Source: an uncultured delta proteobacterium (GTDB lineage: Bacteria > Desulfobacterota > Binatia > UBA9968). From it: 64,000 nt of DNA. Made by a program: the position numbers and the translations under genes. Under the pieces are notes generated by a model. It was given only the letters and a program-made list of their open reading frames with translations, was not told the DNA's origin and made no database searches. The stretch covers positions 320,001 through 384,000 of the forward strand of contig CAVSHR010000012.1 in NCBI GenBank assembly GCA_963727625.1, written 5' to 3'. Below are positions 3,295-63,269 of the stretch, one piece after another. Within the stretch, counting starts at the first letter, position 1, and each line of letters opens with the position of its first letter.

Positions 3295-3309
3295 GCAATC
3301 AGTGTGCCA
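3295..3309 (-). promoter_or_regulatory. sigma54 promoter for hsp20-usp-usp-usp
   Basis: TGGCAC-ACTGA-TTGC, perfect -24/-12 consensus. Confidence 0.85.
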
Positions 3310-3348
3310 ATATTTTGTGTCGTTTTTTCTTTTTTCACACTGATCCGT

Positions 3349-3395
3349 TTCGCATTCTTGAAAAAATTTTCCCTCTGTTCTGTCAAATTTGCGAT
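3349..3395. promoter_or_regulatory. Paired palindromic activator boxes (putative bEBP UAS)
   Basis: TTCGCA-TTCT-TGAAAA (3349) and CTGTCA-AATT-TGCGAT (3380), 31 bp apart. Confidence 0.7.
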
Positions 3396-3465
3396 CTAAG
3401 ATTTTCGAGTTTCAGAACTTCAAACAAAAGCGCTGCTGTCAACGGCGTCGAATGACCGCGTCGGC

Positions 3466-3480
3466 TGGCACCTATCTTGC
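3466..3480 (+). promoter_or_regulatory. sigma54 promoter for the 2-oxoacid oxidoreductase operon
   Basis: TGGCAC-CTATC-TTGC, perfect consensus. Confidence 0.85.
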
Positions 3481-3511
3481 GCTTTCTATTAACCAGAGCA
3501 TGGAGATTGCC

Positions 3512-4408
3512 ATGATTGAAGTTCGCTTTCACGGCCGCGGTGGCCAGGGCGCAAAGCTCGCGAGCCGGATATTCGGGTGCGCCGGGTTTTTGTCCGGACT
3601 TCAAGCTCAAGACTTCGCCTTGTTCGGCGCCGAGCGCAGGGGCGCGCCGGTGGTTTCTTTCACCCGCTTGAGCGACGAAGCGATCGATCAGCGCGGCTAC
3701 GTGGAACATCCGGATCTGGTCGTCGTCATGGACGATTCGCTGCTGAAGGAAGCGCCTGGACAAGTCTTTCATGGCGTTGACGATAAAACACCGCTCTTCG
3801 TGAACGCCGATCCTGATCGCTTCGCAATTGATCTGAAGGATTTGCCTGCGGCAAAGTTCCTGTTCGTCGACCTGTCGGCGATTGCACGGAAACTGATCGG
3901 CGCTCCTGTGGTAAGCGCCGCCGCGGCCGCCATCGCCGCCAAATGCGTTCCGTCCATCAGTCTGTCGGCGCTCGAAAATGCCGTTAAAATCGAACTCGGC
4001 GAATTTAGGCTGGCGCCGAACTTGGTCGAAAGGAACCTGGCCGCGGCCGGGGCAGCGTACCAACGGACGCCGGCCGTCGATCTCGTTCCGGTAGTCAAAG
4101 CCGAGAGAGTTTCCGCGCCGTCATGGCAGGCCGTTCCCTATCTCGGCACTTCTCAGTTTGCCGGTCCGACGATCCGCCACCAGGGCAGCGCGGCCTTGCG
4201 CCAAACCGGCAACTGGCGCATCGAACAGCCGGTCATCGAGCTGGATAAATGCAAGCGCTGCTTTCTTTGCTACCTCTACTGTCCGGAAGCGGCGATGCGC
4301 TTGGACGCGGAGAATTTTCCCCATGTCGACTACGATCACTGCAAGGGCTGCATGATTTGCTACGAAGAGTGCCCGACCGATGCGATCAGCCGGAGGTTGG
4401 AGGTATAA
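3512..4408 (+). CDS. porC: 2-oxoacid:ferredoxin oxidoreductase gamma-delta fusion subunit
   Basis: MIEVRFHGRGGQG..FGAERRGAP (gamma) plus CKRCFLCYLYCP and CKGCMICYEECP 2x[4Fe-4S] (delta); GGAG RBS supports start 3512. Confidence 0.9.
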   Translation: MIEVRFHGRGGQGAKLASRIFGCAGFLSGLQAQDFALFGAERRGAPVVSFTRLSDEAIDQRGYVEHPDLVVVMDDSLLKEAPGQVFHGVDDKTPLFVNADPDRFAIDLKDLPAAKFLFVDLSAIARKLIGAPVVSAAAAAIAAKCVPSISLSALENAVKIELGEFRLAPNLVERNLAAAGAAYQRTPAVDLVPVVKAERVSAPSWQAVPYLGTSQFAGPTIRHQGSAALRQTGNWRIEQPVIELDKCKRCFLCYLYCPEAAMRLDAENFPHVDYDHCKGCMICYEECPTDAISRRLEV

Positions 4409-4450
4409 GGTGTGCCGGGAAAAGTATTGCGACGGTGCCAAAAATCGCGG

Positions 4451-4470
4451 GGGCGCAATTCATTGCGCCC
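4451..4470. repeat. REP-like palindrome
   Basis: GGGCGCAAT-TC-ATTGCGCCC perfect inverted repeat in the intergenic gap. Confidence 0.6.
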
Positions 4471-4480
4471 GAGGTGTGAC

Positions 4481-5725
4481 ATGACCCGCACGATGCTCAC
4501 CGGCAACGTGGCGGCAGCCTGGGGCGCCCGGCTTGCCGAAGTCGATTACATTCCGGCGTTCCCAATCACGCCGCAGACCGAGATCATCGAAATGCTGGCG
4601 CGCTGGTGCCGGAACGGCGAGATGGCGGCAAAATGGGTGATGATGGATTCGGAACACTCCATGCTTGCGGCGGCGGCCGGCGCAGCCGCCGCCGGCGTTC
4701 GGGTCTTCACCGCCACTTCGAGCCAGGGTTTCCTCTACGGTTTCGAAATGCTCTACGCGATCGCCGGGCTGCGACTGCCGCTGGTTTTGGTCAACGTATC
4801 GCGCGCGCTCGCCCATCCAATCACTCTCGAACCCGATCACAATGACGTGCTTTCAGGGCGCGATACCGGATTCCTCCAGTTTCACTGCGAGACCAGCCAG
4901 GAAGTGCTTGATTCTATCTTGATGGCCTACCGTTTGGCCGAACATCAAAAGGTTCTTCTACCGGTGATCGTCAACCTCGACGGTTTTTACTTGTCCTTTA
5001 CACGCGAGCCGGTCGAAATTCCGGAATTGGAAAAAGTGAAAGACTTTCTGCCCGTTTTTACTCCTGCGTCTCCGGTCCTTTCCGATAAAGAACCGGTCGC
5101 CCTGGGGGCTGCGGTGCTAGACTCGAGTTTGTACAGCTACTTCAAACATCAGATGCACCACGCCGCTGAAGCCGCCTTGGAAATCTATCCGCGGATCGCC
5201 GCCGACTTCGCCGAAAGATTTGGCCGGCGCTACAGCGCCATCGAAGAGTTCATGCTCGACGATGCCGAGTACGTCATCGTCATGACCAACTCGTTCGCCT
5301 CCATGGGCAAAGCAGAAGTCAAGCGACTGCGCCAACAGGGAAAGAAAATCGGCCTGGCGCGCTTGCGCATGATTCGGCCGTTCCCGCACGCGGCGCTGCA
5401 GCGCGTGCTCCATGGCCGCAGAGGCGTCGCGGTCATCGATCAGAATATTTCCGTCGGCAAAGGCGGTATTTTATTCAGCGAGATCGCCAGCGCGCTCTAT
5501 GCGCTCGCCGACCGGCCGCCCATCTTGCTTTCGTTTATCGGCGGGCTCGGCGGACGACGGTTTCGCGCCGGCGAATTCGATACCATGCTTCGGAAATTGG
5601 AAAATCCGACGGAAACCGCCGCCCAGATGGCGCGGCCACACCTGCTTTTCACCGGTGAAGAATGCCGCGAGGTCGGCCGGTTCTTCTCGATCGCCGGGAA
5701 AGGAGAAGCCAGCCATGAAACGTGA
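4481..5725 (+). CDS. porA: 2-oxoacid:ferredoxin oxidoreductase alpha subunit
   Basis: GNVAAA..FPITPQTEI..SEHS..TATSSQG..VNVSR; RBS GAGGTG. Confidence 0.93.
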   Translation: MTRTMLTGNVAAAWGARLAEVDYIPAFPITPQTEIIEMLARWCRNGEMAAKWVMMDSEHSMLAAAAGAAAAGVRVFTATSSQGFLYGFEMLYAIAGLRLPLVLVNVSRALAHPITLEPDHNDVLSGRDTGFLQFHCETSQEVLDSILMAYRLAEHQKVLLPVIVNLDGFYLSFTREPVEIPELEKVKDFLPVFTPASPVLSDKEPVALGAAVLDSSLYSYFKHQMHHAAEAALEIYPRIAADFAERFGRRYSAIEEFMLDDAEYVIVMTNSFASMGKAEVKRLRQQGKKIGLARLRMIRPFPHAALQRVLHGRRGVAVIDQNISVGKGGILFSEIASALYALADRPPILLSFIGGLGGRRFRAGEFDTMLRKLENPTETAAQMARPHLLFTGEECREVGRFFSIAGKGEASHET

Positions 5726-6731
5726 ACTCTACAAGAGCCTGCGCACGATCTCGCGCCAAGACCCGCTCGGACCGGGCGGCCCGCTGTGCGCCGGTTGCGG
5801 CGGCCAGTTGAGCCTGCGGCTGTTTCACAAGGCGCTGGGTGAAAACGTGATTTTCGTCAACGCGGCGGGCTGCTCGACGCTGCTAGCCACCTATCCTTTC
5901 ACGCCGCTCAACTCGTCGTGGATCTATACCGCGATGGGTTGCGCTCCGGCGGGCGCCCAGGGGGTCCGCGATGCGCTCGACATTCTCAAAGCCAAAGGCA
6001 AGCTGCCGCCGGAGCAAGATCGCAAAGTCGTCGTCCTCACCGGCGACGGCGCAGCCCAGGACATCGGCTTGCAGTCGACCATGGCGGCGATCTATCGCGG
6101 CTTGGATTTCTATTATCTCTGCTACGACAACGAAGCCTACGGCAACACCGGATTTCAAACTTCGGCGAGCACTCCGTACGGCTCGTGCACCTCGACCGAA
6201 CCGGTGACGCCCACCTCGCCGCACGGCAGTTTGCATGAGCGGCGCGATCTGTTTGAAATCTGGCGGGTACAGAGACCGCCCTACCTGGCGACGATCTCGG
6301 CGGCCGATCCGCTCGATCTTTCCGAAAAAGTTTATCGCGCTTCGAAGCATCCCGGGCCCAAGCTGTTCTTAGCTCTGGCGCCCTGCCCGCCCGGCTGGGA
6401 TTTCGACCCGGAATGGTCCGTCGCGGCCGCGCGTCTGGCGGTGAACACCGGCATCTGGCCGCTCAAAGAGGCGGTCCATGGCGAGGTCGCACACACGCGG
6501 GTCCCGCGCAAGTTCGAACCGGTGGAAAATTACTTAAAGCGCCAGGGCCGCTTCCGCCACCTCTTCGAACCGAAGCGCGACGAAGCAGCCATCGCGCATA
6601 TTCAAGCGACCGTAAATAGTTACTGGCAGGCTGCCCAGCGCGACGTTAAAGGGACGCACCACGAAGCTCACCCCCGCCTCTTTCCTCCCCCGCACGCGGG
6701 GGAGGATGAAGGAGGGAGCCCTTCGCGGTGA
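5715..6731 (+). CDS. porB: 2-oxoacid:ferredoxin oxidoreductase beta (TPP-binding) subunit
   Basis: CAGCG..AAGC..GDGAAQDIG..YDNEAYGNTG..PCPPGW; overlaps porA end. Confidence 0.93.
   Translation: MKRELYKSLRTISRQDPLGPGGPLCAGCGGQLSLRLFHKALGENVIFVNAAGCSTLLATYPFTPLNSSWIYTAMGCAPAGAQGVRDALDILKAKGKLPPEQDRKVVVLTGDGAAQDIGLQSTMAAIYRGLDFYYLCYDNEAYGNTGFQTSASTPYGSCTSTEPVTPTSPHGSLHERRDLFEIWRVQRPPYLATISAADPLDLSEKVYRASKHPGPKLFLALAPCPPGWDFDPEWSVAAARLAVNTGIWPLKEAVHGEVAHTRVPRKFEPVENYLKRQGRFRHLFEPKRDEAAIAHIQATVNSYWQAAQRDVKGTHHEAHPRLFPPPHAGEDEGGSPSR
6683..6706. repeat. REP-like palindrome inside the porB 3' end
   Basis: TCCTCCCCCGC-AC-GCGGGGGAGGA. Confidence 0.55.
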
Positions 6732-6793
6732 AAGTTTATTCTTTGTTGAGGTTCATGGGCGACAATGTTCGGTTGAATGCAAACGACTAGGAG

Positions 6794-7900
6794 ATGACGA
6801 TGGAAAACGTTTTTGACTTCGCCGACGAATTAGGCCCGAGCAAAATCGTCCACGTCTACGATCCGAAATACGGTTTGAAAGCCGTGGTCGCCGTCGACAA
6901 CGTGGCGCGCGGCCCGTCCATCGGCGGGGTCCGCATGGCGCCCGACGTGAGCGCCGAGGAAGCCTTTCGCTTGGCGCGCGCCATGACGATGAAAAACTCC
7001 GCTGCTAATTTGCCCCACGGCGGCGGCAAATCGGTGATCTTCGGCAACCCGAAAATCGATTTGGCGAGCAAGGAGCCGTTGATCCGTGCCTTCGCCCGCG
7101 CCATCCGCGACCTGGTGGAATATATTCCAGGCCCGGACATGGGCACCGACGAGCGCTGCATGGCATGGATCCAAGACGAGATCGGACGCGCTGTCGGCCT
7201 GCCGCCGGAGATCGGCGGCATCCCGCTCGACGAAATCGGCGCCACCGGCTTGGGCCTGAGAGCCAGCGTCGAAGCGGCGCTTAAATATTGCAGCTTCGAT
7301 CTCAAAGGCGCGCGCGTGGTGGTTCAGGGCTTCGGCTCGGTGGGAAAACACGCCGCCCGCTTTCTCGGCGAGCAAGGCACGGTCCTGGTCGCCGCCTGCG
7401 ACTCGCACGGAACGATTTACAATTCCAGAGGCATCGACCTCGTGCGGTTAATCGCGCTTAAAGACGCCGGCAAGAACGTAAGGGACTATCCGGAGGGAGA
7501 GAAACTCAGCGTCGACGCGGTCATCGATATCGACTGCGAGATCTGGATCCCCGCCGCCCGCCCGGATGTGATCCGCAAGGAAAATGTCGATCGATTGAAA
7601 ACCAAGCTGGTTCCTCAAGGCGCGAACATCCCCTTCACCCCGGAAGCCGAACGCATCCTGCACGAAAAAGGCATCCTCGTGCTGCCGGATTTCATCGCCA
7701 ACGCCGGCGGCGTGATCTGCGCCTCGGTGGAATACCATGGCGGCACCCAAGCTCAAGCCTTGCAAACCATCGAAGAAAAGATCCGCGCGAATACCGAAGA
7801 GGTGCTCGCCAACGCAAAAAAGAGCGGTTCGCTACCGCGTCAGGCTGCGGTGAAATTGGCGGAAACGAGGGTGAAAAAAGCAATGGCGTACCGACGTTAG
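6794..7900 (+). CDS. Glu/Leu/Phe/Val dehydrogenase
   Basis: GGVRM..AMTMKN..LPHGGGKS, GPDMGT, QGFGSVG, PDFIANAGGVI. Confidence 0.93.
   Translation: MTMENVFDFADELGPSKIVHVYDPKYGLKAVVAVDNVARGPSIGGVRMAPDVSAEEAFRLARAMTMKNSAANLPHGGGKSVIFGNPKIDLASKEPLIRAFARAIRDLVEYIPGPDMGTDERCMAWIQDEIGRAVGLPPEIGGIPLDEIGATGLGLRASVEAALKYCSFDLKGARVVVQGFGSVGKHAARFLGEQGTVLVAACDSHGTIYNSRGIDLVRLIALKDAGKNVRDYPEGEKLSVDAVIDIDCEIWIPAARPDVIRKENVDRLKTKLVPQGANIPFTPEAERILHEKGILVLPDFIANAGGVICASVEYHGGTQAQALQTIEEKIRANTEEVLANAKKSGSLPRQAAVKLAETRVKKAMAYRR
7696..7900 (+). repeat. Direct repeat copy 1 (dehydrogenase 3' end; copy 2 at 10062-10266)
   Basis: 7696-7839 matches 10062-10205 with one mismatch; the rest is diverged mostly at synonymous sites. 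Confidence 0.9.
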
Positions 7901-9008: not shown

Positions 9009-9232
9009 GATGACCGCCTCTAATTTGACTCTTTTGCTAGCGTGCCAAAGCTTGGGCCGATATTTCTCTAAATTCGCCGTGCTTCTTCCCCAGCCTCGGC
9101 ATAACTTCATTAATCCAATTCGGATGCGCCTATCCGTTACCTGGGTTACGGACGCGTTCTTTTTTATTGACTATGAAAGTTATTTTAAAGGCGGCGAAAT
9201 TCTGCATCGTGCGTTTCACAAGGGGGGGAACA

Positions 9233-9943
9233 ATGAAAAAGTCTGTCATCCAGACTTCAGAGCTTCGTAAAATGGGGACTTTCGAGGGGTTCTCTGAAAA
9301 GTGCCTCGATCGCTTAGCCAGCAATATGGAAGAACTGCGTGTGAGTCGGGGCGAAGCGATCTATCGTCCGGGACAACCGGCTAAGTACCTCTATTGTGTG
9401 CTGGAAGGCGTCATTGGTCTCTCACTACTCGGCAGTGAGGATCGCTTTGTGCGCCTGATGTTATCCGGGAGAGGAGACTTTTTTGGAATCGACGCGCTTA
9501 TGCGCAGATGGCGACGGGTGAGCGTGGCCACAGCCATGCAAGATTCACGTGTGGCAAGGATCAAGCCCCGCATTTTTGTCACCGAGGTTTGTGGCGTGCC
9601 TTGGGAGCCTTTTGACGGGTTAATTCACACGCTAATAACACCGGTTTTAAAGGTGTCCTTACAGCGGGCAGTGTTTTTAGTGGAAAATCTACCTGACAGG
9701 TTAGCCCTAGCCCTCTGGGAGTATTCACACGGTTTCGATATTAGACGATCGAAAGAGCTTTTGCCGACTGCCCTCACTCACGACGAACTTGCTGCAATGG
9801 TAGGCGCCTCCAGGCCGCGGGTGTCACTTGCGTTGAAGCAACTACAACGTCAAGGTCTCCTCATCGGAAGTCGGAAGCAAATTCGAATTCAAGAGAAACC
9901 TCTACGTGCTTACCTCGAGGACCGATATGGGTTCGCCTTTTAG
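9233..9943 (+). CDS. Crp/Fnr family transcriptional regulator
   Basis: cNMP-binding fold (IYRPGQPA.YLYCVLEG..GDFFG) plus HTH LTHDELAAMVGASRPRVS. Confidence 0.85.
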   Translation: MKKSVIQTSELRKMGTFEGFSEKCLDRLASNMEELRVSRGEAIYRPGQPAKYLYCVLEGVIGLSLLGSEDRFVRLMLSGRGDFFGIDALMRRWRRVSVATAMQDSRVARIKPRIFVTEVCGVPWEPFDGLIHTLITPVLKVSLQRAVFLVENLPDRLALALWEYSHGFDIRRSKELLPTALTHDELAAMVGASRPRVSLALKQLQRQGLLIGSRKQIRIQEKPLRAYLEDRYGFAF

Positions 9944-15902: not shown

Positions 15903-15917
15903 GCAAGAAATGCGCCA
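15903..15917 (-). promoter_or_regulatory. sigma54 promoter for acsA-pdh-ACP
   Basis: TGGCGC-ATTTC-TTGC. Confidence 0.82.
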
Positions 15918-16073: not shown

Positions 16074-16088
16074 CGGCATTGAAATTGC
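16074..16088 (+). promoter_or_regulatory. sigma54 promoter for DUF2267-dnaJ-mla
   Basis: CGGCAT-TGAAA-TTGC. Confidence 0.78.
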
Positions 16089-22863: not shown

Positions 22864-23100
22864 GCTCGATTACGCGGACGATACCACTCCAAAGACGGTC
22901 GATGGTCGCCGAGCAAACCTCCCTCGCCTTTAAACCGGCGGGAGCGGTATCGATGATTCCGACGCCGCGACCGATTAGAAAGCAATCGGCGTGCCTAAGA
23001 ATTTCCATTCAATTCACGCGGCAGCCGTGGATTTTGCTCATCCGTGCGAAGTTGAGTTTTGCTCACTATCATTTCTGACAAGACCCGGCACATCTACCGG

Positions 23101-23782: not shown

Positions 23783-23911
23783 CGACTTGGCTGTGCCAAT
23801 TTTTGGGCTTGGTTTTTAGCCATCCGCAAGCGCAGTGCCAACGAGATTGCGGATCTAAACGCTAAAATAAAAGATTTTTTCTCTGAGTTTCGAATAAAAG
23901 CCTGCTGTGAA

Positions 23912-24177: not shown

Positions 24178-24192
24178 TGGCACAACAATTGC
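24178..24192 (+). promoter_or_regulatory. sigma54 promoter
   Basis: TGGCAC-AACAA-TTGC, perfect consensus. Confidence 0.8.
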
Positions 24193-28810: not shown

Positions 28811-28825
28811 GCAGGAGCCATGCCA
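28811..28825 (-). promoter_or_regulatory. sigma54 promoter for USP
   Basis: TGGCAT-GGCTC-CTGC. Confidence 0.7.
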
Positions 28826-34337: not shown

Positions 34338-34352
34338 GCAAATAACATGCCG
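34338..34352 (-). promoter_or_regulatory. sigma54 promoter for boxB-like/DPSL
   Basis: CGGCAT-GTTAT-TTGC. Confidence 0.78.
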
Positions 34353-35591: not shown

Positions 35592-35660
35592 AGGTAGAGC
35601 AAAAAAAATACCACAAATTGTCCAGCGCGGCGAAGCCGCAACCGAATCTCGGAGTATTTC

Positions 35661-36034: not shown

Positions 36035-36049
36035 TGGCATAGAAAATGC
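36035..36049 (+). promoter_or_regulatory. sigma54 promoter
   Basis: TGGCAT-AGAAA-ATGC. Confidence 0.75.
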
Positions 36050-38433: not shown

Positions 38434-38448
38434 GCAAGAGATATGCCA
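38434..38448 (-). promoter_or_regulatory. sigma54 promoter
   Basis: TGGCAT-ATCTC-TTGC. Confidence 0.8.
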
Positions 38449-39506: not shown

Positions 39507-39553
39507 TTGCCAAACCTGAAAAGAAAAGCACGGAAAATTCTCGCAACCGCAAA
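39507..39553. promoter_or_regulatory. Paired palindromic activator boxes
   Basis: TTGCCA-AACC-TGAAAA (39507) and TTCTCG-CAAC-CGCAAA (39538), 31 bp apart. Confidence 0.55.
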
Positions 39554-39607
39554 AACACAAACGGCCGCCCTTCACTCGTCCAGCATCCTTTTGTCTCTCG
39601 TCTGCAA

Positions 39608-39622
39608 CGGCAAGCTTGTTGC
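39608..39622 (+). promoter_or_regulatory. sigma54 promoter
   Basis: CGGCAA-GCTTG-TTGC. Confidence 0.62.
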
Positions 39623-51032: not shown

Positions 51033-51047
51033 GCAATAATTGTGCCG
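51033..51047 (-). promoter_or_regulatory. sigma54 promoter for lipoprotein-dnaK-efflux unit
   Basis: CGGCAC-AATTA-TTGC. Confidence 0.8.
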
Positions 51048-51240: not shown

Positions 51241-51255
51241 TGGTACGCCAATTGC
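51241..51255 (+). promoter_or_regulatory. sigma54 promoter for cytochrome c
   Basis: TGGTAC-GCCAA-TTGC. Confidence 0.72.
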
Positions 51256-53091: not shown

Positions 53092-53106
53092 GCAAGGGTC
53101 ATACCG
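53092..53106 (-). promoter_or_regulatory. sigma54 promoter for mat
   Basis: CGGTAT-GACCC-TTGC. Confidence 0.65.
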
Positions 53107-53263: not shown

Positions 53264-53278
53264 TGGCACAGCCATTGC
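53264..53278 (+). promoter_or_regulatory. sigma54 promoter for archease-rtcB
   Basis: TGGCAC-AGCCA-TTGC, perfect consensus. Confidence 0.85.
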
Positions 53279-55257: not shown

Positions 55258-56043
55258 ATGTTCCAGCTACTCGGCGAGTTTGTCGGTCTGCTCGGCACCG
55301 TCGTGGTTATCGCGGCGATAATTCTGATCAGCGGCATCAAAATCCTCCGCGAATATGAGCGCGGCGTCATCTTTCGCCTCGGGCGGCTGGTCGCGCCGCG
55401 CGGCCCCGGCATCATCTACGTCATTCCACTGATCGAAAAAATCGTCCGGGTGCAACTGCGCACCGTGACCATGGACGTGCCGCCGCAGGATGTCATTACC
55501 AAAGACAACGTTTCGGTCAAGGTCAACGCGGTGGTTTACTTTCGCGTCATGGACGCGAACCTGGCGATTCTCGAGGTCGAGAACTATCTTTTCGCCACCG
55601 CACAGCTCGCCCAGGTGACGTTGCGCAGCGTTTGCGGCCAGGCCGAGCTCGACGAGCTGCTCGCGGAAAGAGAAAAACTCAACATCAAGCTGCAGGAGAT
55701 CCTCGACGCCGCAACCGACCCTTGGGGAATCAAGGTCGTGGTCGTCGAGCTCAAGGATATCGATCTACCCCAGGAGATGCGCCGCGCCATGGCCAAGCAG
55801 GCCGAAGCCGAACGGGAGCGGCGCGCCAAGATCATTCATGCCGAAGGCGAGTTTCAAGCCTCGCAAAAGCTGGCCGAAGCGGCGGAGATCATCGCCAAGC
55901 AGCCCAACGCCATGCACCTGCGCTTCCTGCAAAGCCTGGTCGAGGTGTCGTCGGAAAAAAACCACACCGTCGTGGTCCCGATTCCCGTCGATGTCGTCAC
56001 CCGAGCGCTTGCGATGTTAAAGCCGGAAGAGCCCACCGGGTAG
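55258..56043 (+). CDS. Stomatin/slipin (SPFH) protein
   Basis: [40 protein letters not shown]. Confidence 0.95.
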
Positions 56044-56071
56044 CTTGCGTCGAGACAAAACGGAGCATTGG

Positions 56072-56335
56072 TTGAATATCGAATTCAACGCCGACGAATG
56101 GCACGACCCGCATCGGCGCCAGGTCGTGTGGTTCAGCGCCATAGTCGACGACAAATGCATCGACTGCGGCATTTCCATCGAAGCCCTCGCCGGCCATTTC
56201 GGCGCATTTCAGGATGACCCCTTGCCCGCGTTTCGAGCCCACCGAGAACGCATCCGCGAAGCAGCGTCGAGACTGATCACCGAGCGTCGCTTCGAAGCCG
56301 ACGGCACAATTCTCATCCGAAGCGCGGATCTATGA
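56072..56335 (+). CDS. DUF1488 family protein
   Basis: F.A.VD...C.IS.EAL..HF..AF..HR.RI..AA; TTG start after GGAG. Confidence 0.75.
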   Translation: MNIEFNADEWHDPHRRQVVWFSAIVDDKCIDCGISIEALAGHFGAFQDDPLPAFRAHRERIREAASRLITERRFEADGTILIRSADL

Positions 56336-56412: not shown

Positions 56413-56459
56413 CTTTCAATCGTGACAACCGTGTCGAGGTTATTTCCGGCTTATGCGAA
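56413..56459. promoter_or_regulatory. Paired palindromic activator boxes
   Basis: CTTTCA-ATCG-TGACAA (56413) and TTCCGG-CTTA-TGCGAA (56444), 31 bp apart. Confidence 0.62.
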
Positions 56460-56529: not shown

Positions 56530-56544
56530 TGGCGCACCGATTGC
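56530..56544 (+). promoter_or_regulatory. sigma54 promoter for the CoA-activase gene
   Basis: TGGCGC-ACCGA-TTGC. Confidence 0.82.
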
Positions 56545-56591: not shown

Positions 56592-59500
56592 GTGAAATAT
56601 ATCGGCATAAATATCGGTGCCCTGACGGTCAAGCTCGCGGTCTTGGATGGGGCTCAAACCTTTGCGGCGGTGGTACCCCATCTGGGCCGCCCGCTCGCGG
56701 TTCTCGAAAAGCTCCTCGCTGAGAAAGATTTCGCCGGTGCCGATTATTACGGCGTGTCGGGCCATCTTGGCCACCTCTCGGAGGCCGCGGCCATTCAACG
56801 CGCTCTGGGCGAGGTAAAAAGCGATTTTGATGCGGTGGTATCGCTGGGCGGCGAGTCGTTCCTGGTTTACATCGTTGCGAAAGGCCGGATCAGCAACGTC
56901 CTGTCCCATAACAAGTGCGCCGCCGGCAGCGGCGAGTTCTTCGTGCAGCAGATCGGCCGCATGGGGCTCGGCATGGAAGAGGCCATCCGCAATTCGTTCG
57001 AGGGCAAGGTCGTGCCGTTGGCGGCGCGCTGCTCGGTGCACTGTAAATCCGACATCACCCACAAGCTCAACCGCAACGAGGCGACCGCCAAAGACATTCT
57101 CCATACGCTCCATGACAGCATGGCGAGCAAAGTCGTTGCCCTGCTCGAAAAAGGTCAGAGCGATCTCCGGCGCGTGCTTTTGATCGGCGGGGTTACCCGA
57201 AACGCGGCGATGCTGGCGGCGCTGCGCGAGAAGCTTCTATCTACTGAGTTCGTCGTGTTACCCGAGAGTCCCTGGTTCGAAGCCTGGGGCAGCGCATTGC
57301 TCACGCGCGACCTGCCGCTGTATCCTGCACCAAAAACATCGACCCAGGCGACTCTCGGCCACCTGCCGGCGCTCAAGCTCTATAGCGATCGGGTCGAAGT
57401 CATTCCCGTGCCGCCGCAGCAACCGGCGCCTGACGGCCCGATGGTGCTTGGTGTGGACGCGGGATCGACAACCACTAAAGCCGTGCTTGTCGACGCCGCG
57501 ACCAAGGCGGTGGTGGCGACGAATTACACGCGAACCCGGGGCGATCCGGTCGCCGCGACGCGCGAATGTTTGAGAGCACTGGTCGAACAGATCGGCAACC
57601 GGTGCATCGGCTTGGTGGGCTCCACGGGTTCAGCGCGCGAGCTCGCCGGCGCCTACCTCGGCACCGAGCATGTCTACAATGAAATCTCAGCCCATGCCGC
57701 CGGCGCCGCGCATTTTGACGCGGACGTCGATACGATCTTTGAGATCGGCGGCCAGGATTCCAAATATATCTATCTTCGCAACGGCGTGCCCATCGACTAC
57801 GCGATGAATAACGCCTGCTCGGCGGGCACCGGTTCTTTTCTCGAGGAAAGCGCCCACGGCGATCTCGGCATGGACGTCTCGGAGATCGCCGAGCTCGCGT
57901 TGGCCGCTCCCGCGCCGGTGCAATTCAAGGCGACCTGCGCGGCGTTTATCAACTCCGATATCCGCATCGCCCTGCAAGAAGATCACTCACGCGAGAACAT
58001 CGTCGCCGGTTTGGTTTATGCCATCGCCGGCAACTACCTGAACCGCGTCAAGGGATCGCGCTACGTCGGCAAGAAAGTCTTCTTGCAAGGCGGCGTCGCG
58101 CTGAATCAAGCGGTCGGTCACGCATTTGCGCACAGTGTCGGGCGCCAGGTCGTCATTCCGCCCAGCCCGGAATTGCTCGGAGCGTTGGGGGTGGCGTTGC
58201 TGGCCCTGCAACGGGCGGACGGCTCGTTAGGAACCGCGACGGAGCTCTTGACTCTGGCCGCGCCGGAGATGAAGCGCACCGGTGGATTTACCTGCGGCGC
58301 CTGTGGCCTGTATTGCAGCATCGATCATTTCGAAGTCGCCGGACGGCGCTTTCCCTTTGGCGGCCGCTGCAGCCTCTATGAAAACGTCTGGAAACGAAAA
58401 AACCGCAGCGCAGCGGCGCCAGATCTAGTCGAGCAAAGGAGCAAGCTGCTATTTGACCGTCCCAAGGGCGAGAGCTCGGGCAACGGAAAACGAATCGGAA
58501 TTCCCAAGGCGTTGACGACGCACTCGCTCTACCCGCTCTATTCGACCTTTTTCGCCGGCATGAGCATGGAGGTCGTTTTATCGGCAGTCGACCCGCGCGG
58601 CGAACTCAAATCGAATGCGGGATTTTGCTTTCCCGCGCAGATCGCCCACGGCGCGGTACTGGACCTGGTTCAGCGCGGCGTGGAGCTGATCTTTTTGCCT
58701 CATGTGATGCGCATGCCGCGGCAGGAGGCGTGGAAGGAATCCTATTTATGTCCGATCACGCAGGCCAGCCCTTATTTCCTGGCCAAGGCTTATCCGCAAA
58801 TTCATCTGCTCTCGCCATTGCTCGATTTTAGCGACGGTTATGCCGCGAGCTCCACGCTGGTCGACATGGCGATCAACGAGCTTGGTCAGCCGCGCGATCT
58901 CGCCGAGCGGCAGTGGGCGGCGGCAGTAACGGCCCAAATTGAAGCGGAGCGCGATCTTTTGCAGTTGGGTCGCAGGGCGCTGGCGCAAGCGATCGCCGAC
59001 GGCAAACCTGCGGTCATTCTTGCGGGCCACAGCTACAACGCTTTCACACCGGAAGGGTCACAGTCGGTCGGCAAGAAATTATCGAGTATGGGAGTGGCGG
59101 CAATTCCCGCCGACTGCCTTTCACCAGCGGGCACCGGTCCCACCTCGTGGCATTTCGCCAACCAGGTGATGAATGCGGTGAAGGCGGTCAAACAGCAGGC
59201 CAATCTGTTTCTCCTTTGCGTGAGCAATTTCAGTTGCACCATCGACGCTTTCACCCAATCGATGCTCGCCGCAGAGATGGGTTCGAAGCCCTATCTCATC
59301 CTGGAGATCGATGCCCATACCGCCGACGCAGGCGTGCAAACCCGCTTGGAAGCGTTTCTCGATATCGTCAAGAATTATCATGAAGGCGAGATCAGCCGCC
59401 GCAGCGAATTCAACCCGGCTAAACTGATCGGCGGCGGTCAAGTGCTTCGCGGCAATGGCGAGCGAGTAGCGCTCACGGACCCGCGGGTCAAGCTCTATTT

Positions 59501-60734
59501 TCCCAACTTCTCGCAATATCACGCGGAATCACTGGCGATGTCGGTTGGCTGGCTAGGACTGCACGCCGGCACAGTGACTGCGCTCGACCGCAACCATCTT
59601 GGCAGAGGCCTGCAACACACGTCGGGACGAGAATGCCTGCCGTTGCCGATTTGCATCGGCCAGCTGCTCGAGATTCACGAACGGCGCGTGCCCGGTGAAA
59701 TCGCCGGCTACTATATGCTGGAGGGCGGAGCGCCCTGCGTCATCGACGCCTACATGGGCTATCTGGAACGGTTCATCGGCGAACAGAGCTTGGAGGATCT
59801 TTTCTTGCTCGTCCCCGGCGCTGACAACGATCACTGCGGTTATGACCCAGTGATCTTGGCAAAGTATACCCTGCCGGCACTTCTGGTAGCGGACATCATG
59901 GTCGAGATCGAACAAGTCCTTCACGTCGTCGGCGATGCCCACGCCAACGCACAGCTGAAACAGGAATGGCAGCGCTTCATTGCAAGCGCAAACTCATTGG
60001 AGCAGTTCCATGCGCAACTTCCTGGGTTCGTCGACCGCTTGGCGTCCATCCCGTGTAAACGAAACCCGCTCGATTCCCCGCGGGTACTGGTTACCGGCGA
60101 TTTTTTCACGCGCTTCAGTCCATTTTTCATGGAAGGCGTGAGCGAAATCTATAATGATCGCGGCATCATTCTCAAACCGGTCGATCTGAACGGCCTGTTG
60201 CTCTACGGGGCTTACAACATGGTCGCTGAAGCGGCCGGCGGTTGGGGACTCAAACCGGGCGGCGTAGCGCTAGCGAAAGCTTGCACAAGAATTTTCCAGC
60301 CCGACGGGCGAGAGTACTTGCGCCGTTGGCTCGCCTATCAGACTGAGAAGCGATCCGAAGCATACTACCGCAGGATCTTTCACAAGAGCGGCTATCTGCT
60401 AACACCGCAAGGAGACGCCTCGGCTACCTTTTTAGACGCCTCGGAACATATCTCGCCGAAGATTTACGGCGAGGTCATTCCGACCGTCGGCGACAGCGTA
60501 CGGGCGGATGTCGAAGGCTACGACGGCATCATCATTATCGGCCCGTTTAACTGCTTGCCGTTCCGCATCGCCGAAGCGATTCTCAAGCCGCTCAGCATTC
60601 GACGCGGCATGCCGATCCTCTCCTATGAGAGCGATGGATACGCCGTCTCGCCGTCATTTATCAGACAGGTTGAGGTCCACACGCAGCAGGTTCTTGAGCA
60701 CAGGGCGCGAAATTCGATTCGCGGCGCGGCATGA
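56592..60734 (+). CDS. Multidomain acyl-CoA dehydratase activase (2x BcrAD/BadFG ASKHA domains plus DUF2229/dehydratase-like domains)
   Basis: KCAAGSG, GVDAGSTTTK, EIGGQDSK, ACSAGTGSFLEE, C.FP, NFSC..D, LEIDAH.ADAG..TRLEAF, PFNCLP. Confidence 0.88.
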   Translation: MKYIGINIGALTVKLAVLDGAQTFAAVVPHLGRPLAVLEKLLAEKDFAGADYYGVSGHLGHLSEAAAIQRALGEVKSDFDAVVSLGGESFLVYIVAKGRISNVLSHNKCAAGSGEFFVQQIGRMGLGMEEAIRNSFEGKVVPLAARCSVHCKSDITHKLNRNEATAKDILHTLHDSMASKVVALLEKGQSDLRRVLLIGGVTRNAAMLAALREKLLSTEFVVLPESPWFEAWGSALLTRDLPLYPAPKTSTQATLGHLPALKLYSDRVEVIPVPPQQPAPDGPMVLGVDAGSTTTKAVLVDAATKAVVATNYTRTRGDPVAATRECLRALVEQIGNRCIGLVGSTGSARELAGAYLGTEHVYNEISAHAAGAAHFDADVDTIFEIGGQDSKYIYLRNGVPIDYAMNNACSAGTGSFLEESAHGDLGMDVSEIAELALAAPAPVQFKATCAAFINSDIRIALQEDHSRENIVAGLVYAIAGNYLNRVKGSRYVGKKVFLQGGVALNQAVGHAFAHSVGRQVVIPPSPELLGALGVALLALQRADGSLGTATELLTLAAPEMKRTGGFTCGACGLYCSIDHFEVAGRRFPFGGRCSLYENVWKRKNRSAAAPDLVEQRSKLLFDRPKGESSGNGKRIGIPKALTTHSLYPLYSTFFAGMSMEVVLSAVDPRGELKSNAGFCFPAQIAHGAVLDLVQRGVELIFLPHVMRMPRQEAWKESYLCPITQASPYFLAKAYPQIHLLSPLLDFSDGYAASSTLVDMAINELGQPRDLAERQWAAAVTAQIEAERDLLQLGRRALAQAIADGKPAVILAGHSYNAFTPEGSQSVGKKLSSMGVAAIPADCLSPAGTGPTSWHFANQVMNAVKAVKQQANLFLLCVSNFSCTIDAFTQSMLAAEMGSKPYLILEIDAHTADAGVQTRLEAFLDIVKNYHEGEISRRSEFNPAKLIGGGQVLRGNGERVALTDPRVKLYFPNFSQYHAESLAMSVGWLGLHAGTVTALDRNHLGRGLQHTSGRECLPLPICIGQLLEIHERRVPGEIAGYYMLEGGAPCVIDAYMGYLERFIGEQSLEDLFLLVPGADNDHCGYDPVILAKYTLPALLVADIMVEIEQVLHVVGDAHANAQLKQEWQRFIASANSLEQFHAQLPGFVDRLASIPCKRNPLDSPRVLVTGDFFTRFSPFFMEGVSEIYNDRGIILKPVDLNGLLLYGAYNMVAEAAGGWGLKPGGVALAKACTRIFQPDGREYLRRWLAYQTEKRSEAYYRRIFHKSGYLLTPQGDASATFLDASEHISPKIYGEVIPTVGDSVRADVEGYDGIIIIGPFNCLPFRIAEAILKPLSIRRGMPILSYESDGYAVSPSFIRQVEVHTQQVLEHRARNSIRGAA

Positions 60735-60781
60735 AAGCCGGCGGTAAATGATGCGCTCACGCTTATCACCGGGGAGGGAGA

Positions 60782-60952
60782 ATGGCGACTTACGCGTTTC
60801 ATTGCCAGAAATGCGATCTGAACTTCGAGCTGATGTTTTCGTTTGGCAAGTACCAAAGGAAGGTCAATCCCGTGCGATGTCCCAACTGCAATAGCACTCG
60901 GGTAATCCGGCGGATTTCCCTCTTTGAGGTGAAAACCTCGAAGAAGAGCTAG
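60782..60952 (+). CDS. FmdB-family zinc-ribbon protein (56 aa; not in ORF track)
   Basis: MATYAFHCQKC...RCPNCNS..VIRRIS..VKTSKKS; RBS GGAGGGAG. Confidence 0.85.
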   Translation: MATYAFHCQKCDLNFELMFSFGKYQRKVNPVRCPNCNSTRVIRRISLFEVKTSKKS

Positions 60953-60993
60953 ACCGCGCGACAGAATCCGCGGCGCTGCGCAAACGACGGCGC

Positions 60994-61641
60994 TTATCCC
61001 ACCGCCGAGACTTTCGACTTATCCCGTTTAAGGATTTCGACCACGTCTTCATCGGCAACCTGGCCGAACTCGTCAAAAAATTGGCCCACGGCGTAGAATT
61101 CACCCGGGACATCCAAACAGACCACCTCATCGCACTCGCGCGACATCGCTTGAGCCGCTTCCGGGGAAGCCACGGCGACGGCGGCAATCAGCTTTTTGGG
61201 CCCCTGGGCGCGCACCGCGCGCAACGCCGCCCTCATCGTTGATCCGGTGGCGATGCCGTCGTCAACCACGATGACCATGCGGTCTCGCGGATCGATCGGC
61301 GCCTGATGCGGCGTGTATACGGCTCGGCGGCGGCGCAGGACCTGCAGTTGGCGTTTTTTTTCCGCTTGCACATACTCGAAGTCGAGATCCAAAGCCCACT
61401 CGGAAACAAACGCTTTGCCGGTTTCATCGATGGCGCCGATGGCGAGCTCAGGCGACTCGGGATGGCTGAGCTTGTGCACGAGCACGACATCCAGCTCGCC
61501 GCCGAGGGCACCGGCGATGATCTTGGCCATCGGCACTGCGCCGCGCGGTATGCCGAGCACTAAAGGATTCTTGTTTTTGTACTGAGGACTCAAGCGCTCG
61601 ACCAAAAGCGCCGCGGCATGTTCTCGATTTCTAAATCGCAT
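60994..61641 (-). CDS. Phosphoribosyltransferase family protein (Rv0571c-like)
   Basis: F.NR..A..L, GIPRGAVP, VIVVDDGIATGSTM, FYAVGQFF..F.QV.D. Confidence 0.9.
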   Translation of the reverse strand: MRFRNREHAAALLVERLSPQYKNKNPLVLGIPRGAVPMAKIIAGALGGELDVVLVHKLSHPESPELAIGAIDETGKAFVSEWALDLDFEYVQAEKKRQLQVLRRRRAVYTPHQAPIDPRDRMVIVVDDGIATGSTMRAALRAVRAQGPKKLIAAVAVASPEAAQAMSRECDEVVCLDVPGEFYAVGQFFDEFGQVADEDVVEILKRDKSKVSAVG

Positions 61642-61677
61642 GGCTCACCTCGCTTAGCTCCCGGAGTCTGCATGGTG

Positions 61678-63063
61678 TCAAACCCTCGTCTCCGGTGATT
61701 TTCGATTGCCCGGTTGTCTTTGCCGCGCGTCGACTTCTTTGGCCAGAAGTTGAATCGCTTCGGCAACGCGCACGGGATAATCCGGCGCAGGCTCGAGCTT
61801 TTTCAACCCATCGGGCAGTTTCTTGAATTGCTCCAGTGCCCACGCCCGCGATTGCTTCAGGGACACGGGCGCTGTAAGCCGCCGTCCCTGCTGCATGACC
61901 GGCGCGATGAGCGCGGCCCCGCTGTTTTCGTCGCCTTCCAAGGTCAAGAGATCTCCAGCCATCAGTCCTGCGGAATCGTAGGTCCGAAACACCTGCTTTC
62001 TGCCCGGCCACAGCACCTTGCCTTCCGAGCGCTTGCGGCGGGCACGGCCGGCATACTCGACGAGCTTGTAGGCGCAGTCCAAGTAGGGCGCATCGGCGGA
62101 AGTATCCATATGCGTGCCGATGCCGAAGCCGTCGATGGGGGCGCCTTTCTCGCGTAGCTGTTGGAGCAGATATTCATCGACGCTGCCGCTGGCAAAGATG
62201 GTGACCTCATTGAGGCCGCCGGCGTCAAGAATGCGCCGCACTTTGAATGCATGATCGGCCAGATCGCCGCTGTCCAGCCGCACGCCTTTGATTTTAATCC
62301 CGTCGTGGCCAAGCTTGGGCGCCAGCTCGACGACCTTTTGGGCCGCCGCTTCAGTGTCATAGGTATCGATCAGGAGAATCACATTATTTGGCAGCGCCCG
62401 GGCAAAGTGCTCAAACGCCGCGCTTTCGTCATCGTGTGCCTGCACGAATGAGTGGGCCATCGTGCCAAATACCGGGATGTCGTAGAGCGGCGCCGCCAGC
62501 ACCGTGGCGCTGCCGGCGAAACCGGCCAAATAACTCGCTCGCGCCGCCAGCAGTCCGGCTTCGGCCCCATGGGCGCGGCGCAAGCCAAAATCCACCAGCA
62601 GTTTGCCTGGTGCCATCAGCACCGAACGCGCCGCCTTTGAAGCGATCAAGGTTTCAAAATGAAACAAGTTAATCAGCCGGCTTTCCACCAGCTGCGCCTG
62701 GTCGATCGGCGCCGTGACGCGCAGGATCGGTTCGTTGGGGAAAAAAATCGTTCCTTCAGCCATGGCGTGGACATCGCCGGTAAAGCGGAGATTTTTCAGA
62801 TAGCGCACGAACTTTGGATGAAACTCGCCATGCTTGCCGATCCATTCGAGCTCCGCTGCGGTAAAGCGCAGGTTTGCCAAAAACCCGAGCCCCTGTTCAA
62901 GGCCGGCGGCGACGAGAAAATTGCGCGAGCGCGGCAGCTTGCGAACGAAAAATTCAAAAACCGCGGTTTCTTCCATGTGCTGATCGAAGTAGCCCTGGAG
63001 CATCGTGAGCTGGTATAGATCGGTCAGCAGCGCGCTCGATAGAACGTTTCGCTCGATATTCAT
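61678..63063 (-). CDS. pncB: Nicotinate phosphoribosyltransferase
   Basis: LLTDLYQLTM, DFGLRRAHG, GTMAHS, LIDTYDT, VRLDSGD, YKLVEY. Confidence 0.95.
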   Translation of the reverse strand: MNIERNVLSSALLTDLYQLTMLQGYFDQHMEETAVFEFFVRKLPRSRNFLVAAGLEQGLGFLANLRFTAAELEWIGKHGEFHPKFVRYLKNLRFTGDVHAMAEGTIFFPNEPILRVTAPIDQAQLVESRLINLFHFETLIASKAARSVLMAPGKLLVDFGLRRAHGAEAGLLAARASYLAGFAGSATVLAAPLYDIPVFGTMAHSFVQAHDDESAAFEHFARALPNNVILLIDTYDTEAAAQKVVELAPKLGHDGIKIKGVRLDSGDLADHAFKVRRILDAGGLNEVTIFASGSVDEYLLQQLREKGAPIDGFGIGTHMDTSADAPYLDCAYKLVEYAGRARRKRSEGKVLWPGRKQVFRTYDSAGLMAGDLLTLEGDENSGAALIAPVMQQGRRLTAPVSLKQSRAWALEQFKKLPDGLKKLEPAPDYPVRVAEAIQLLAKEVDARQRQPGNRKSPETRV

Positions 63064-63254
63064 TGCGCTTTCCTATGCCTTGAACCGCCTCAGCCCATCC
63101 GGGTCCACCTGCGTCCAAGAGGTCGTCGCGCGCCTCGCTTTCGGCCCGCCGCAGCGCCGAGAATGCAAGCTGGTCATGCCAGCGCACCCAACACCTGCCA
63201 TCGTTGAGGACCAACAGCGAAAAATCGACACTCGGCGATTACGCTCTTGGAGTG

Positions 63255-63269
63255 GCAAACGGCATGCCA
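63255..63269 (-). promoter_or_regulatory. sigma54 promoter for pncB-PRT
   Basis: TGGCAT-GCCGT-TTGC. Confidence 0.78.

Follow-up and report, generated by a model that had tools for sequence, protein, structure and literature searches.

What holds a dense run of sigma-54 promoters together in the genome of an uncultured member of Candidatus Binatia, and what would switch them on? The stretch in question, henceforth referred to as the window, comprises 64,000 nucleotides (G000:C12:320001-384000) of the 662-kb contig CAVSHR010000012.1 (C12) of assembly GCA_963727625.1, a genome of 6.62 Mb in 15 contigs with 57% G+C. Binatia are widespread uncultured bacteria of soil and sediment, and to our knowledge nothing is known about regulation in them. 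A first-pass annotation of the window had listed 19 sigma-54 promoters over 60 kb and proposed that the functionally diverse genes behind them form one co-induced stress programme held together as an island. Here we describe a palindromic box common to these promoters and, at the edge of the window, an NtrC-type activator gene that lies beside the gene of a kinase with a FixL-like haem pocket. Judging from sequence, we consider it reasonably probable that the window is the core of a large Candidatus Binatia sigma-54 regulon, most likely one induced by low oxygen.

Sigma-54 promoters in the window and the genome

A dicodon model gave rough calls for 5,324 genes, which take up 79% of the genome (the coding mask takes in 72%), and promoters were scored with a 27-nt matrix built from the genome's own non-coding consensus matches. 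Five window positions match the consensus TGGCAC-N5-TTGC exactly, against a mean of 0.18 in dinucleotide shuffles, none of 100 of which reached five. With two mismatches allowed there were 99 matches where 69 were expected, an excess so modest that loose matching by itself is insufficient for a promoter claim. Genome-wide, 40 of the 46 exact matches fall outside the coding mask. Matrix matches of at least 16 bits number 136 in non-coding and 8 in coding DNA, a 43-fold greater density in the former; the corresponding counts are 181 versus 36 at 15 bits or more and 213 versus 79 at 14 bits or more, the last making 292 in total (4.4 per 100 kb). We predict roughly 150-200 sigma-54 promoters in the genome, which has a single rpoN gene (Sigma54_DBD, C6:181555-182031) and 27 full-length Sigma54_activat genes, just one of them on C12.

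The genome-wide scan with a position weight matrix that the first-pass annotation had named as a check on its claim placed promoter density in the window far above the genome mean, and density in non-coding DNA far above that in coding DNA. All matches of at least 14 bits in the window number 17, whereas 200 shuffles gave 1.2 on average and never more than 4. When non-coding matches are counted per 64 kb, the window holds 16 at 14 bits or more (genome mean 2.1, sd 2.6, maximum 16), 13 at 15 bits or more (genome mean 1.8; the window is the genome maximum) and 11 at 16 bits or more (genome mean 1.35, maximum 11), counts equalled only by overlapping neighbour windows on C12. A reading of the matches as chance or as an artefact of composition could appeal to the modest two-mismatch excess, but it is already refuted by the excess over shuffles, the 43-fold non-coding density, the correct orientation of the sites and their conservation in other genomes, and we give it practically no credence.

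Eighteen window sites that are non-coding and face a gene score 13.9-20.1 bits and are treated here as sigma-54 promoters (Table 1). By our own parsing they head 18 of about 24 candidate transcription units and about 52 of the 63 called genes, in agreement with the earlier statement that such promoters head most units. The cluster itself was borne out, in that 15 of the 19 sites listed earlier score 13.9-19.3 bits, and the several perfect consensus matches noted among them are those at 3295, 3466, 24178 and 53264; a fifth perfect match lies at 23826. The other four coordinates scored poorly: 23768(-) has 3.9 bits, with the real site, 23826(-), 58 nt away; 35577(-) has -6.4 bits, with the real site, 35599(-), 22 nt away; 39262(-), at 4.6 bits, is unsupported; and 39608(+) reaches 4.0 bits. 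Because a doubled box (see below) precedes this last site at 62 and 93 nt upstream, it is a possible weak promoter for the nucleotidyl-transferase unit at 39714-43189. The promoter at 22982(-) was absent from the earlier list.

The cluster is no 60-kb island bounded inside the window: promoters of the same type extend over about C12:205-403 kb, interrupted at 280-323 kb. Of the 181 matches of at least 15 bits, 34 fall in C12:192-448 kb when the genome is binned by 32 kb. A mobile genomic island was considered and rejected: ARAGORN found no tRNA in the window, a protein family scan found no integrase or transposase family among its proteins, its G+C (51-63% per 2 kb) is near the contig mean of 57%, and its gene order is mostly common with that of the related genome G014. 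Promoter density is also raised at C11:96-350 kb and C5:128-256 kb, the latter stretch including a MtrB/PioB porin and a multihaem cytochrome behind a 23.5-bit promoter.

A palindromic box common to the promoters

Motif discovery by expectation maximisation upstream of 24 promoters (C12:300-420 kb) yielded AATTTTTTCAA-N4-TGCGAA, and seven of the eight genome-wide matches to this motif of at least 22 bits fall in that same region. Because circularity was to be avoided, a palindromic matrix was retrained only on 40 upstream regions at loci of four other genomes; the resulting box reads TT(C/T)(G/T)CA-N4-TG(A/C)(A/G)AA, with TTCGCA-N4-TGCGAA as its typical form. A box of at least 12 bits lies 25-200 nt upstream of 25 of the 38 promoters in C12:190-450 kb (66%; henceforth referred to as the island) and of 11 of the 175 promoters elsewhere (6%; chance expectation 2.3%). 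Simply contrasting the k-mers of upstream regions inside and outside the island brought out no clear motif. Eighteen window promoters carry a box of at least 11 bits, and looser thresholds give 60 box-bearing promoters in the genome, 34 of them in C12:205-403 kb (18 in the window) and 25 on other contigs.

The geometry of the box is rigid. Distances from box to promoter peak at 45-60, 75-95 and 105-115 nt, with centres about 48, 79 and 109 nt before the TGG, and the box occurs in both orientations. Among the 35 pairs of boxes that lie 10-80 bp apart in the genome, 16 are spaced at exactly 31 bp and four at 32 bp, and 14 of these 20 pairs are on C12. One doubled box is common to each of the divergent promoter pairs 3295/3466, 15903/16074, 51033/51241 and 53092/53264.

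Two alternatives bear on how the box is to be understood. In the first, the palindrome is bound by a protein other than a sigma-54 activator and the true enhancers lie elsewhere. A Crp/Fnr-type regulator is encoded in the window (9167-9943), the 5-4-5 geometry resembles that of Fnr-type sites, and the lxa locus discussed below uses an Anr/Fnr-like motif; for an IHF-like bending protein speaks the motif first obtained, with a T-rich arm and TCAA-N4-T like the IHF consensus. Yet the box is symmetric, doubled at exactly 31 bp, found in both orientations and present in the activator's own leader, and the alignments contain no other conserved enhancer-like block; a general bending site would hardly be missing, as the box is, from 94% of the sigma-54 promoters elsewhere. 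The IHF reading of the first, asymmetric motif was set aside for the symmetry and doubling of the box and its rarity at other promoters, and we regard a binder of either kind as very unlikely.

In the second alternative, the promoters belong to several independent circuits and their clustering is a habit of sigma-54 stress genes in this lineage. Such a habit would sit well with 27 activators and about 180-210 predicted promoters in the genome, with the 13 of 38 island promoters that lack a strong box and with the sigma-54-rich stretches on C11 and C5. It sits badly with 18 window promoters that carry the same box in a fixed geometry, with a box frequency of 66% in the island versus 6% elsewhere, and with the presence of one activator gene only on a 662-kb contig, and we think it improbable.

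The activator and its neighbouring kinase

The sole activator gene on C12, the 3' part of which lies in the window (Table 1), encodes a receiver, an AAA+ domain with a GSFTGA loop and a Fis-type helix-turn-helix (Pfam Response_reg, Sigma54_activat, AAA_lid_14 and HTH_8); we take this variant of the GAFTGA loop to be functional. The protein falls below the curated NCBIfam cut-offs for AtoC, NtrC, ZraR, NtrX, RtcR and NorR, the best being AtoC with 421 versus 714 bits, and its closest named relatives are metagenome-assembled genomes of Candidatus Binatia.

Directly upstream on the same strand, at 65087-67702 in window numbering and thus outside the window, lies the gene of an 870-residue kinase with a GAF domain, three PAS domains, HisKA and HATPase. 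Two residues of its third PAS domain, the His in 'EHD.YI.RY' and the Arg in 'IGRIRTV', correspond in alignment to those of FixL that we take to be, respectively, the proximal haem ligand and the oxygen-contacting residue. The domain as a whole (residues 518-644) matches the haem PAS of FixL (E 5e-28 to 1dp6) and DosP, and the FixL-type signature is kept in the kinases adjacent to the activator orthologs of G003, G014 and G017. The G017 kinase (G017:C43; L017, ~1492-3315) has two successive FixL-type haem PAS signatures.

The leader between the kinase and activator genes contains, in four genomes, a sigma-54-like site followed by two boxes 30-31 bp apart. Such an arrangement in an activator's own leader is the usual sign of autoregulation, and we regard it as the best available link between this activator and the box.

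Conservation in related genomes

Orthologs of the activator with 77-93% identity are present in 17 of the 30 other genomes of the genus, and in same-order genomes outside the genus the best activator matches, among the matches listed, are about 38-45% identical. Stretches of 60-100 kb around the ortholog were fetched from four relatives, in which sites of at least 14 bits number 20 in 100 kb (G014), 17 in 80 kb (G017), 9 in 80 kb (G003) and 5 in 60 kb (G008). In these loci the boxes are again positioned between divergent promoters, orthologous first genes retain a sigma-54 site and a box in 10 of 12 cases, and gene order in G014 is in large part that of the window. In same-genus genomes whose activator is 82-83% identical, the blocks conserved on alignment correspond to the -24/-12 elements, the boxes and the ribosome-binding sites; the promoter at 3295(-), for example, is conserved in G017 and G008, and alignment A2 sets the start of the oxidoreductase gene at 3512, downstream of the promoter at 3466.

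An exact composite pattern of promoter, 30-60 nt gap and box occurs 45 times in 21 of the 31 genus genomes, and its reversed control does not occur. It is found in 15 of the 17 genomes with an ortholog of at least 77% identity (14 of 16 if G005 is excluded) versus 5 of the 13 without one, an association which, since the genomes are kin, is not a statistical test. Around homologs in other species, 78 of the 80 loci examined have no promoter-box pair, L046 has one, and at least two pairs occur only at L041 (four; 87% identity, Binatia). L041, on which the single positive among the 80 rests, is apparently the same contig as G005, an unpublished genome of the genus, and the layout was thus not traced beyond the genus with this activator query.

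A second activator and the weighing of the evidence

A second activator gene, at C5:224734-225669, encodes a protein with no sensor domain, whose AAA+ and helix-turn-helix regions are 56% identical to those of the window-edge activator. The helix SLS(T/S)LYRK is common to both and, among the other 26 activators of the genome, occurs in this one alone. The gene follows two small ones in a unit with a sigma-54 promoter of its own, which has a box of 17.5 bits. Because it has the same helix and the same type of promoter, the C5 activator probably targets these boxes too, where it would amplify the response or feed in a second signal. Two proteins of about 167 residues encoded in its unit (C5:226304-226807 and C5:225804-226304, or L029:2271-2774 and 1771-2271, minus strand) have no Pfam or NCBIfam match and are candidates for partner-switch control.

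A stronger version of this idea makes the sensor-less C5 activator the main binder of the box, perhaps controlled by a partner as PspF is by PspA, in which case oxygen would not be the signal or would be one of two inputs. Its relationship to the window-edge activator, its helix and its boxed promoter would all fit, as would the Usp genes near it (C5:219-222 kb). The composite pattern in 5 of 13 genus genomes without the response-regulator ortholog, together with its position on the same contig as, and 3.4 kb (G012) and 13 kb (G018) from, a match to the sensor-less type, means that a C5-type activator may be the real or an equal binder. Nevertheless, 34 of the 60 box-bearing promoters surround the response-regulator gene and not the C5 gene, the response regulator's own leader has the doubled box in four genomes, and 15 of 17 ortholog-bearing genomes show the composite pattern. 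We consider the C5 activator an unlikely main binder.

One low-oxygen regulon spanning about 200 kb is the best reading of these data. Its gene content matches the NmpR regulon and the lxa locus (see below) and is of the kind seen in low-oxygen and dormancy regulons, and the programme is most likely of a known general kind, a survival programme unusual in its size and compactness. Several points weigh against this reading, including the two just given on genomes that show the pattern without the ortholog or near a sensor-less activator. The kinase scores 223 bits against a cut-off of 850 for the NCBIfam FixL model NF041777 and is not an equivalog; its additional GAF and two PAS domains have no assigned ligands, its N-terminal parts are not conserved among relatives, and the putative haem PAS may instead report NO, CO or redox state. 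The link between activator and box is drawn from association and from the boxes in the activator's own leader, the two activators are indistinguishable by the sequence of the DNA-reading helix, and 13 of 38 island promoters have no box of at least 12 bits. On the technical side, the sigma-54 matrix was trained on the same genome, with about 6% of its sites from the window, and the seed of the relatives-trained box came from this genome; the relatives are kin and so not independent samples, the window's gene calls and unit boundaries are our own rough parsing without terminator analysis, and each functional step was deduced in silico. A search of public runs found no RNA run containing window DNA, and matching DNA runs share 5-11% of sampled words.

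The earlier proposal of one stress programme stands in part. A common and rigidly placed enhancer, a kinase/activator pair at the edge and a conserved layout all speak strongly, on sequence grounds, for a single programme, the co-induction of which we infer, and the trigger is probably narrower than general stress, namely low oxygen sensed through the FixL-type haem PAS kinase.

A proposed regulatory route

In the route that we propose, the cytoplasmic kinase encoded beside the window would, by analogy with FixL, become active when oxygen is scarce at the haem pocket of its kinase-proximal PAS domain. From the adjacency of the two genes, its substrate would be the NtrC-type regulator encoded directly downstream. 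Dimers of the activator would then bind the palindrome, typically at two copies 31 bp (three helical turns) apart, a spacing that is seen in the DNA, and the AAA+ ring would remodel sigma-54 holoenzyme at the -24/-12 elements, as is established for this class of protein. About 18 promoters and some 50 genes of the window would be induced together, along with at least 16 further promoters in C12:205-403 kb and about 25 elsewhere. The products would include universal stress proteins (Usp), chaperones, Dps, functions in RNA repair, NAD salvage and S-adenosylmethionine synthesis, the 2-oxoacid:ferredoxin oxidoreductase, acetate-CoA ligase with its pyruvate-dehydrogenase-type complex, and transporters, and from outside the window CBS and hemerythrin proteins, ribonucleotide reductase, a hibernation factor, isocitrate lyase and an L,D-transpeptidase. 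As sigma-54 promoters are silent without an activator, they suit a programme that is kept off in air.

If this is right, the locus offers a testable model of oxygen loss in Binatia, with a named sensor, a named activator, a DNA box and about 60 target promoters. The rigid design (boxes 31 bp apart, at about 48, 79 or 109 nt) would provide a ready set of parts for reporters, and the many small uncharacterised proteins under these promoters are candidate new dormancy factors. A bolder claim, which we put forward as speculative and rather doubtful, is that this is the largest contiguous regulon of one type of sigma-54 activator yet seen, with about 34 boxed promoters and well above 100 genes over 200 kb, kept in relatives, and that its packing is functional. 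Were that so, a scarce activator in an oxygen-starved, non-growing cell might quickly find some 50 doubled sites near its own gene or, alternatively, the block might act as a single chromosomal domain opened as a unit; the question of why regulons cluster around their regulator would then become directly testable.

Transcription units and gene content

The predicted promoters, boxes and units of the window are collected in Table 1.

Table 1. Predicted sigma-54 promoters, enhancer boxes and associated units in window numbering (strand ".", box placed between or serving divergent promoters)
Feature	Position	Strand	Score (bits)	Upstream box	Unit or remark
Promoter, perfect consensus	3295..3309	-	18.2		Hsp20 and three tandem-Usp genes, 3241 to before base 1
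Doubled box, 31 bp apart	3349-3364, 3380-3395	.	18.1, 11.9		Serves divergent 3295(-)/3466(+); conserved block in alignment A2
Promoter, perfect consensus	3466..3480	+	19.3		2-oxoacid:ferredoxin oxidoreductase gamma-delta, alpha and beta, Glu/Leu-type dehydrogenase; ~3512-7900
Promoter	15903..15917	-	16.4		Acetate-CoA ligase, pyruvate-dehydrogenase-type E1 alpha/beta, E2, acyl carrier protein; 15697 down to 10342
Box and weaker second box	15957-15972, ~15984-16003	.	19.9 (first)		Between divergent promoters; both kept in three genomes (alignment A1)
Promoter	16074..16088	+	15.9		DUF2267, DnaJ, PEMT-like and Mla-type ABC transporter genes; 16148-22108
Promoter	22982..22996	-	16.0		Receiver-only response regulator; 22863-22423
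Promoter, perfect consensus	23826..23840	-	20.1	23912-23927, 23943-23958	Product uncertain, 67-codon frame
Promoter, perfect consensus	24178..24192	+	16.2	24043-24058	Uncharacterised 151-aa protein, BrkB/YihY-type, TrmO_N-like; 24204-26555
Promoter	28811..28825	-	14.7	28876-28891	Tandem Usp; 28785-27856
Promoter	34338..34352	-	13.9	34392-34407 (20.2 bits, 48 nt upstream)	BoxB/PaaA-like di-iron protein, Dps, TrmO-like, metallo-beta-lactamase-fold, thioredoxin and amidotransferase genes; down to 29783
Promoter	35599..35613	-	18.2		Tandem Usp; down to 34635
Promoter	36035..36049	+	18.1	35904-35919	Two small uncharacterised proteins; 36095-36979
Promoter	38434..38448	-	16.5	38489, 38521 (32 bp apart)	Small uncharacterised protein and Host_attach/baeRF12-family protein; to 37395
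Doubled box, 31 bp apart, then CGGCAA-N5-TTGC	39507..39622	+	4.0 (CGGCAA-N5-TTGC)	39507-39522 (15.5 bits), 39538-39553 (12.1 bits)	
Promoter	51033..51047	-	13.9		Glycine-zipper protein, uncharacterised protein, DnaK, MacB-type efflux set and outer-membrane factor; to 43460
Doubled box, 31 bp apart	51178-51193, 51209-51224	.	19.1, 18.1		Between divergent 51033(-)/51241(+)
Promoter	51241..51255	+	15.3		c-type cytochrome; 51327-51755
Promoter	53092..53106	-	17.6		Archaeal-type methionine adenosyltransferase; down to 51825
Doubled box, 31 bp apart	53156-53171, 53187-53202	.	14.3, 14.8		Between divergent 53092(-)/53264(+)
Promoter, perfect consensus	53264..53278	+	18.6		Archease, RtcB RNA ligase, SPFH protein, DUF1488; 53311-56335
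Promoter	56530..56544	+	14.1	56413-56428	1380-aa acyl-CoA-dehydratase-activase-like protein; 56592-60734
Promoter	63255..63269	-	14.3	63360-63375	Nicotinate phosphoribosyltransferase and phosphoribosyltransferase; 63063-60994
NtrC-type activator gene, 3' part	63547..64000 (whole gene 63547-64896)	-			Receiver, AAA+ with GSFTGA loop, Fis-type helix-turn-helix

The stress genes of the window comprise five tandem Usp genes and those for Hsp20, DnaK, DnaJ, Dps, thioredoxin, archease with RtcB and a SPFH protein. Its metabolic genes are those of the 2-oxoacid:ferredoxin oxidoreductase, the Glu/Leu-type dehydrogenase and the acetate-CoA ligase with pyruvate-dehydrogenase-type E1/E2, and nicotinate phosphoribosyltransferase, archaeal-type methionine adenosyltransferase, the Mla and MacB transporters and many small uncharacterised proteins are also encoded. 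Just outside lie genes for three CBS proteins, a hemerythrin, a B12-dependent ribonucleotide reductase, more Usp and a hibernation factor. Matches above NCBIfam cut-offs were obtained for NrdJ_Z, DnaK, acetate-CoA ligase, NAPRTase and methionine adenosyltransferase, and 18 of the genome's 39 Usp domain matches fall in the island; Rfam at gathering thresholds gave no match in the window. Elsewhere in the genome, box-bearing promoters head genes for isocitrate lyase, FeoAB, OsmC, an L,D-transpeptidase, DegP and a glycogen-phosphorylase-like protein.

Several features of individual units deserve mention. The leader from the promoter at 15903 to the start of the ligase gene at 15697 includes a frame of 49 codons (15830-15880, minus strand) that has a ribosome-binding site and begins 29 nt past the promoter; in G014 a distance of 1.4 kb separates promoter and acetate-CoA ligase gene, and the content of the leader thus varies between species. 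A 110-codon frame at 26683-26952 (-) matches the second half only of the Usp model and, within a 1.3-kb stretch (26556-27855) that has no called gene, may be a decayed Usp copy. No box precedes, and no gene on its strand follows, the sigma-54-like site at 43228-43242 (+; 14.1 bits). It points towards the efflux operon from that operon's 3' end and is a match by chance or else a putative antisense promoter. The methionine adenosyltransferase (51825-53033, minus strand) is of the archaeal type (PF01941; above the NCBIfam equivalog cut-off) in a bacterium. The 1380-residue protein, 85% identical in G014, consists of two BcrAD/BadFG acyl-CoA-dehydratase-activase modules and DUF2229, and no partner dehydratase was seen nearby.

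Three observations concern the DNA beyond the activator end of the window. A strong sigma-54 site of 18.8 bits at L001:4902-4916 (+), or 67902 in window numbering, is conserved in G014 (L008:5134, 18.1 bits). It runs antisense into a conserved frame of 371 codons on the minus strand, which matches PriCT_1 weakly, and may give rise to an antisense RNA or to an extended leader for the CBS-CBS-CBS-hemerythrin genes, which lie 1.8 kb further downstream. In a protein of 575 residues (L001:14644-16371, minus strand), a Cof-type HAD phosphatase is fused with a HerA/DUF87-like ATPase segment. The frame at L001:17273-17893 (+), which is C12:400273-400893, lies behind a box-bearing sigma-54 promoter and encodes a Ribosomal_S30AE hibernation domain fused to a cold-shock domain, for which no NCBIfam model covers the whole protein.

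Comparison with known systems

The kinase-proximal PAS domain is homologous to that of rhizobial FixL (PDB 1dp6, 1xj4), with the pocket His and Arg aligned. Unlike FixL/FixJ, the partner is an NtrC-type sigma-54 activator and not a FixJ-type regulator, and the kinase has extra GAF and PAS domains. Many sigma-54 promoters in one block, under one activator that works through upstream sites, are known from the Klebsiella nif (NifA) and the flagellar (FleQ/FlrA) clusters, each of which serves one machine or pathway over about 25-60 kb; with these classical clustered regulons in mind, the first-pass annotation's premise that sigma-54 promoters are usually scattered was overstated. In contrast to those clusters, functions here are diverse and the block is several times larger. 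RtcB of Escherichia coli, in the RtcR-rtcBA system, is transcribed from a sigma-54 promoter; unlike there, no RtcR-type activator is adjacent here, and the archease-RtcB unit carries the island's common box.

A parallel in gene content and sensor type is the DosR(DevR)/DosS/DosT dormancy system, in which haem-sensor kinases and a response regulator control about 50 genes, among them those for tandem Usp, HspX, NrdZ, a CBS protein and a ribosome-associated factor. DosR is of the NarL/LuxR type and works with the housekeeping sigma factor, the haem is held in GAF domains, and the genes lie in several scattered clusters. The present system is alike in its putative haem-sensor kinase, tandem Usp, small heat-shock protein, class II reductase, CBS proteins and ribosome-associated factor; it differs in the use of sigma-54, the FixL-like PAS domain and the contiguous block. 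Six Usp belong to the DosR regulon of Mycobacterium tuberculosis (PMC2914252).

Contiguity is a feature of the lxa locus of Burkholderia cenocepacia, a co-regulated block of 50 genes with a common motif at 17 intergenic points, which supports survival without oxygen and includes six Usp, an alpha-crystallin, a class II ribonucleotide reductase, ABC and outer-membrane transport and metabolism (PMC3721108). Its motif is the Anr/Fnr-like TGA-N6-TCA and its candidate regulators are of the Crp family, and the passages of that paper that deal with the locus describe no sigma-54 promoters, in contrast to the TTCGCA-N4-TGCGAA box and sigma-54 promoters here. Co-induction of lxa was, by the same account, measured; here it is predicted from the DNA. 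If our reading is correct, a gene set of the DosR/lxa type can be wired via sigma-54.

In full-text literature searches, which covered articles without their supplements, no FixL-type kinase with a sigma-54 activator running a Usp/Hsp20 regulon was described; among the papers listed, none treated both Binatia and sigma-54, and the themes of sigma-54, low oxygen and universal stress were joined only in work on NmpRSTU. This system of Myxococcus xanthus is the closest published one: a haem oxygen sensor acts through an NtrC-like regulator on sigma-54 promoters in low oxygen (PMC11841059, PMC6211767). NmpR regulates its own genes and binds doubled GCGCA-N5-TGCGC palindromes that are mostly 14-15 bp apart, and its regulon of 7 promoters and 23 genes, which are scattered, includes CBS-domain, universal stress, hemerythrin and cbb3 oxidase genes (PMC11841059). 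The proposed logic of haem sensor, NtrC-type regulator and sigma-54 is the same, and so is the spacing of the doubled sites, which here leave a 15-bp gap between 16-nt boxes (31 bp centre-to-centre). NmpRSTU is, however, a four-protein relay with the protoglobin sensor NmpU, the hybrid kinase NmpS and the phospho-sink NmpT, in place of which we find a single FixL-type kinase; beside the regulator there is only one GAF-PAS kinase, then CBS, hemerythrin and other genes, with no NmpU/NmpS/NmpT-like set. Half-site and spacer also differ (GCGCA-N5-TGCGC versus TTCGCA-N4-TGCGAA), and since Myxococcota homologs of the activator are 42-43% identical, like those of other phyla, the likeness to NmpR is one of design, with orthology not established. 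Against the seven scattered promoters of NmpR, the one published sigma-54 oxygen regulon, stand about 60 candidates here, some nine times as many, with 34 of them inside 200 kb.

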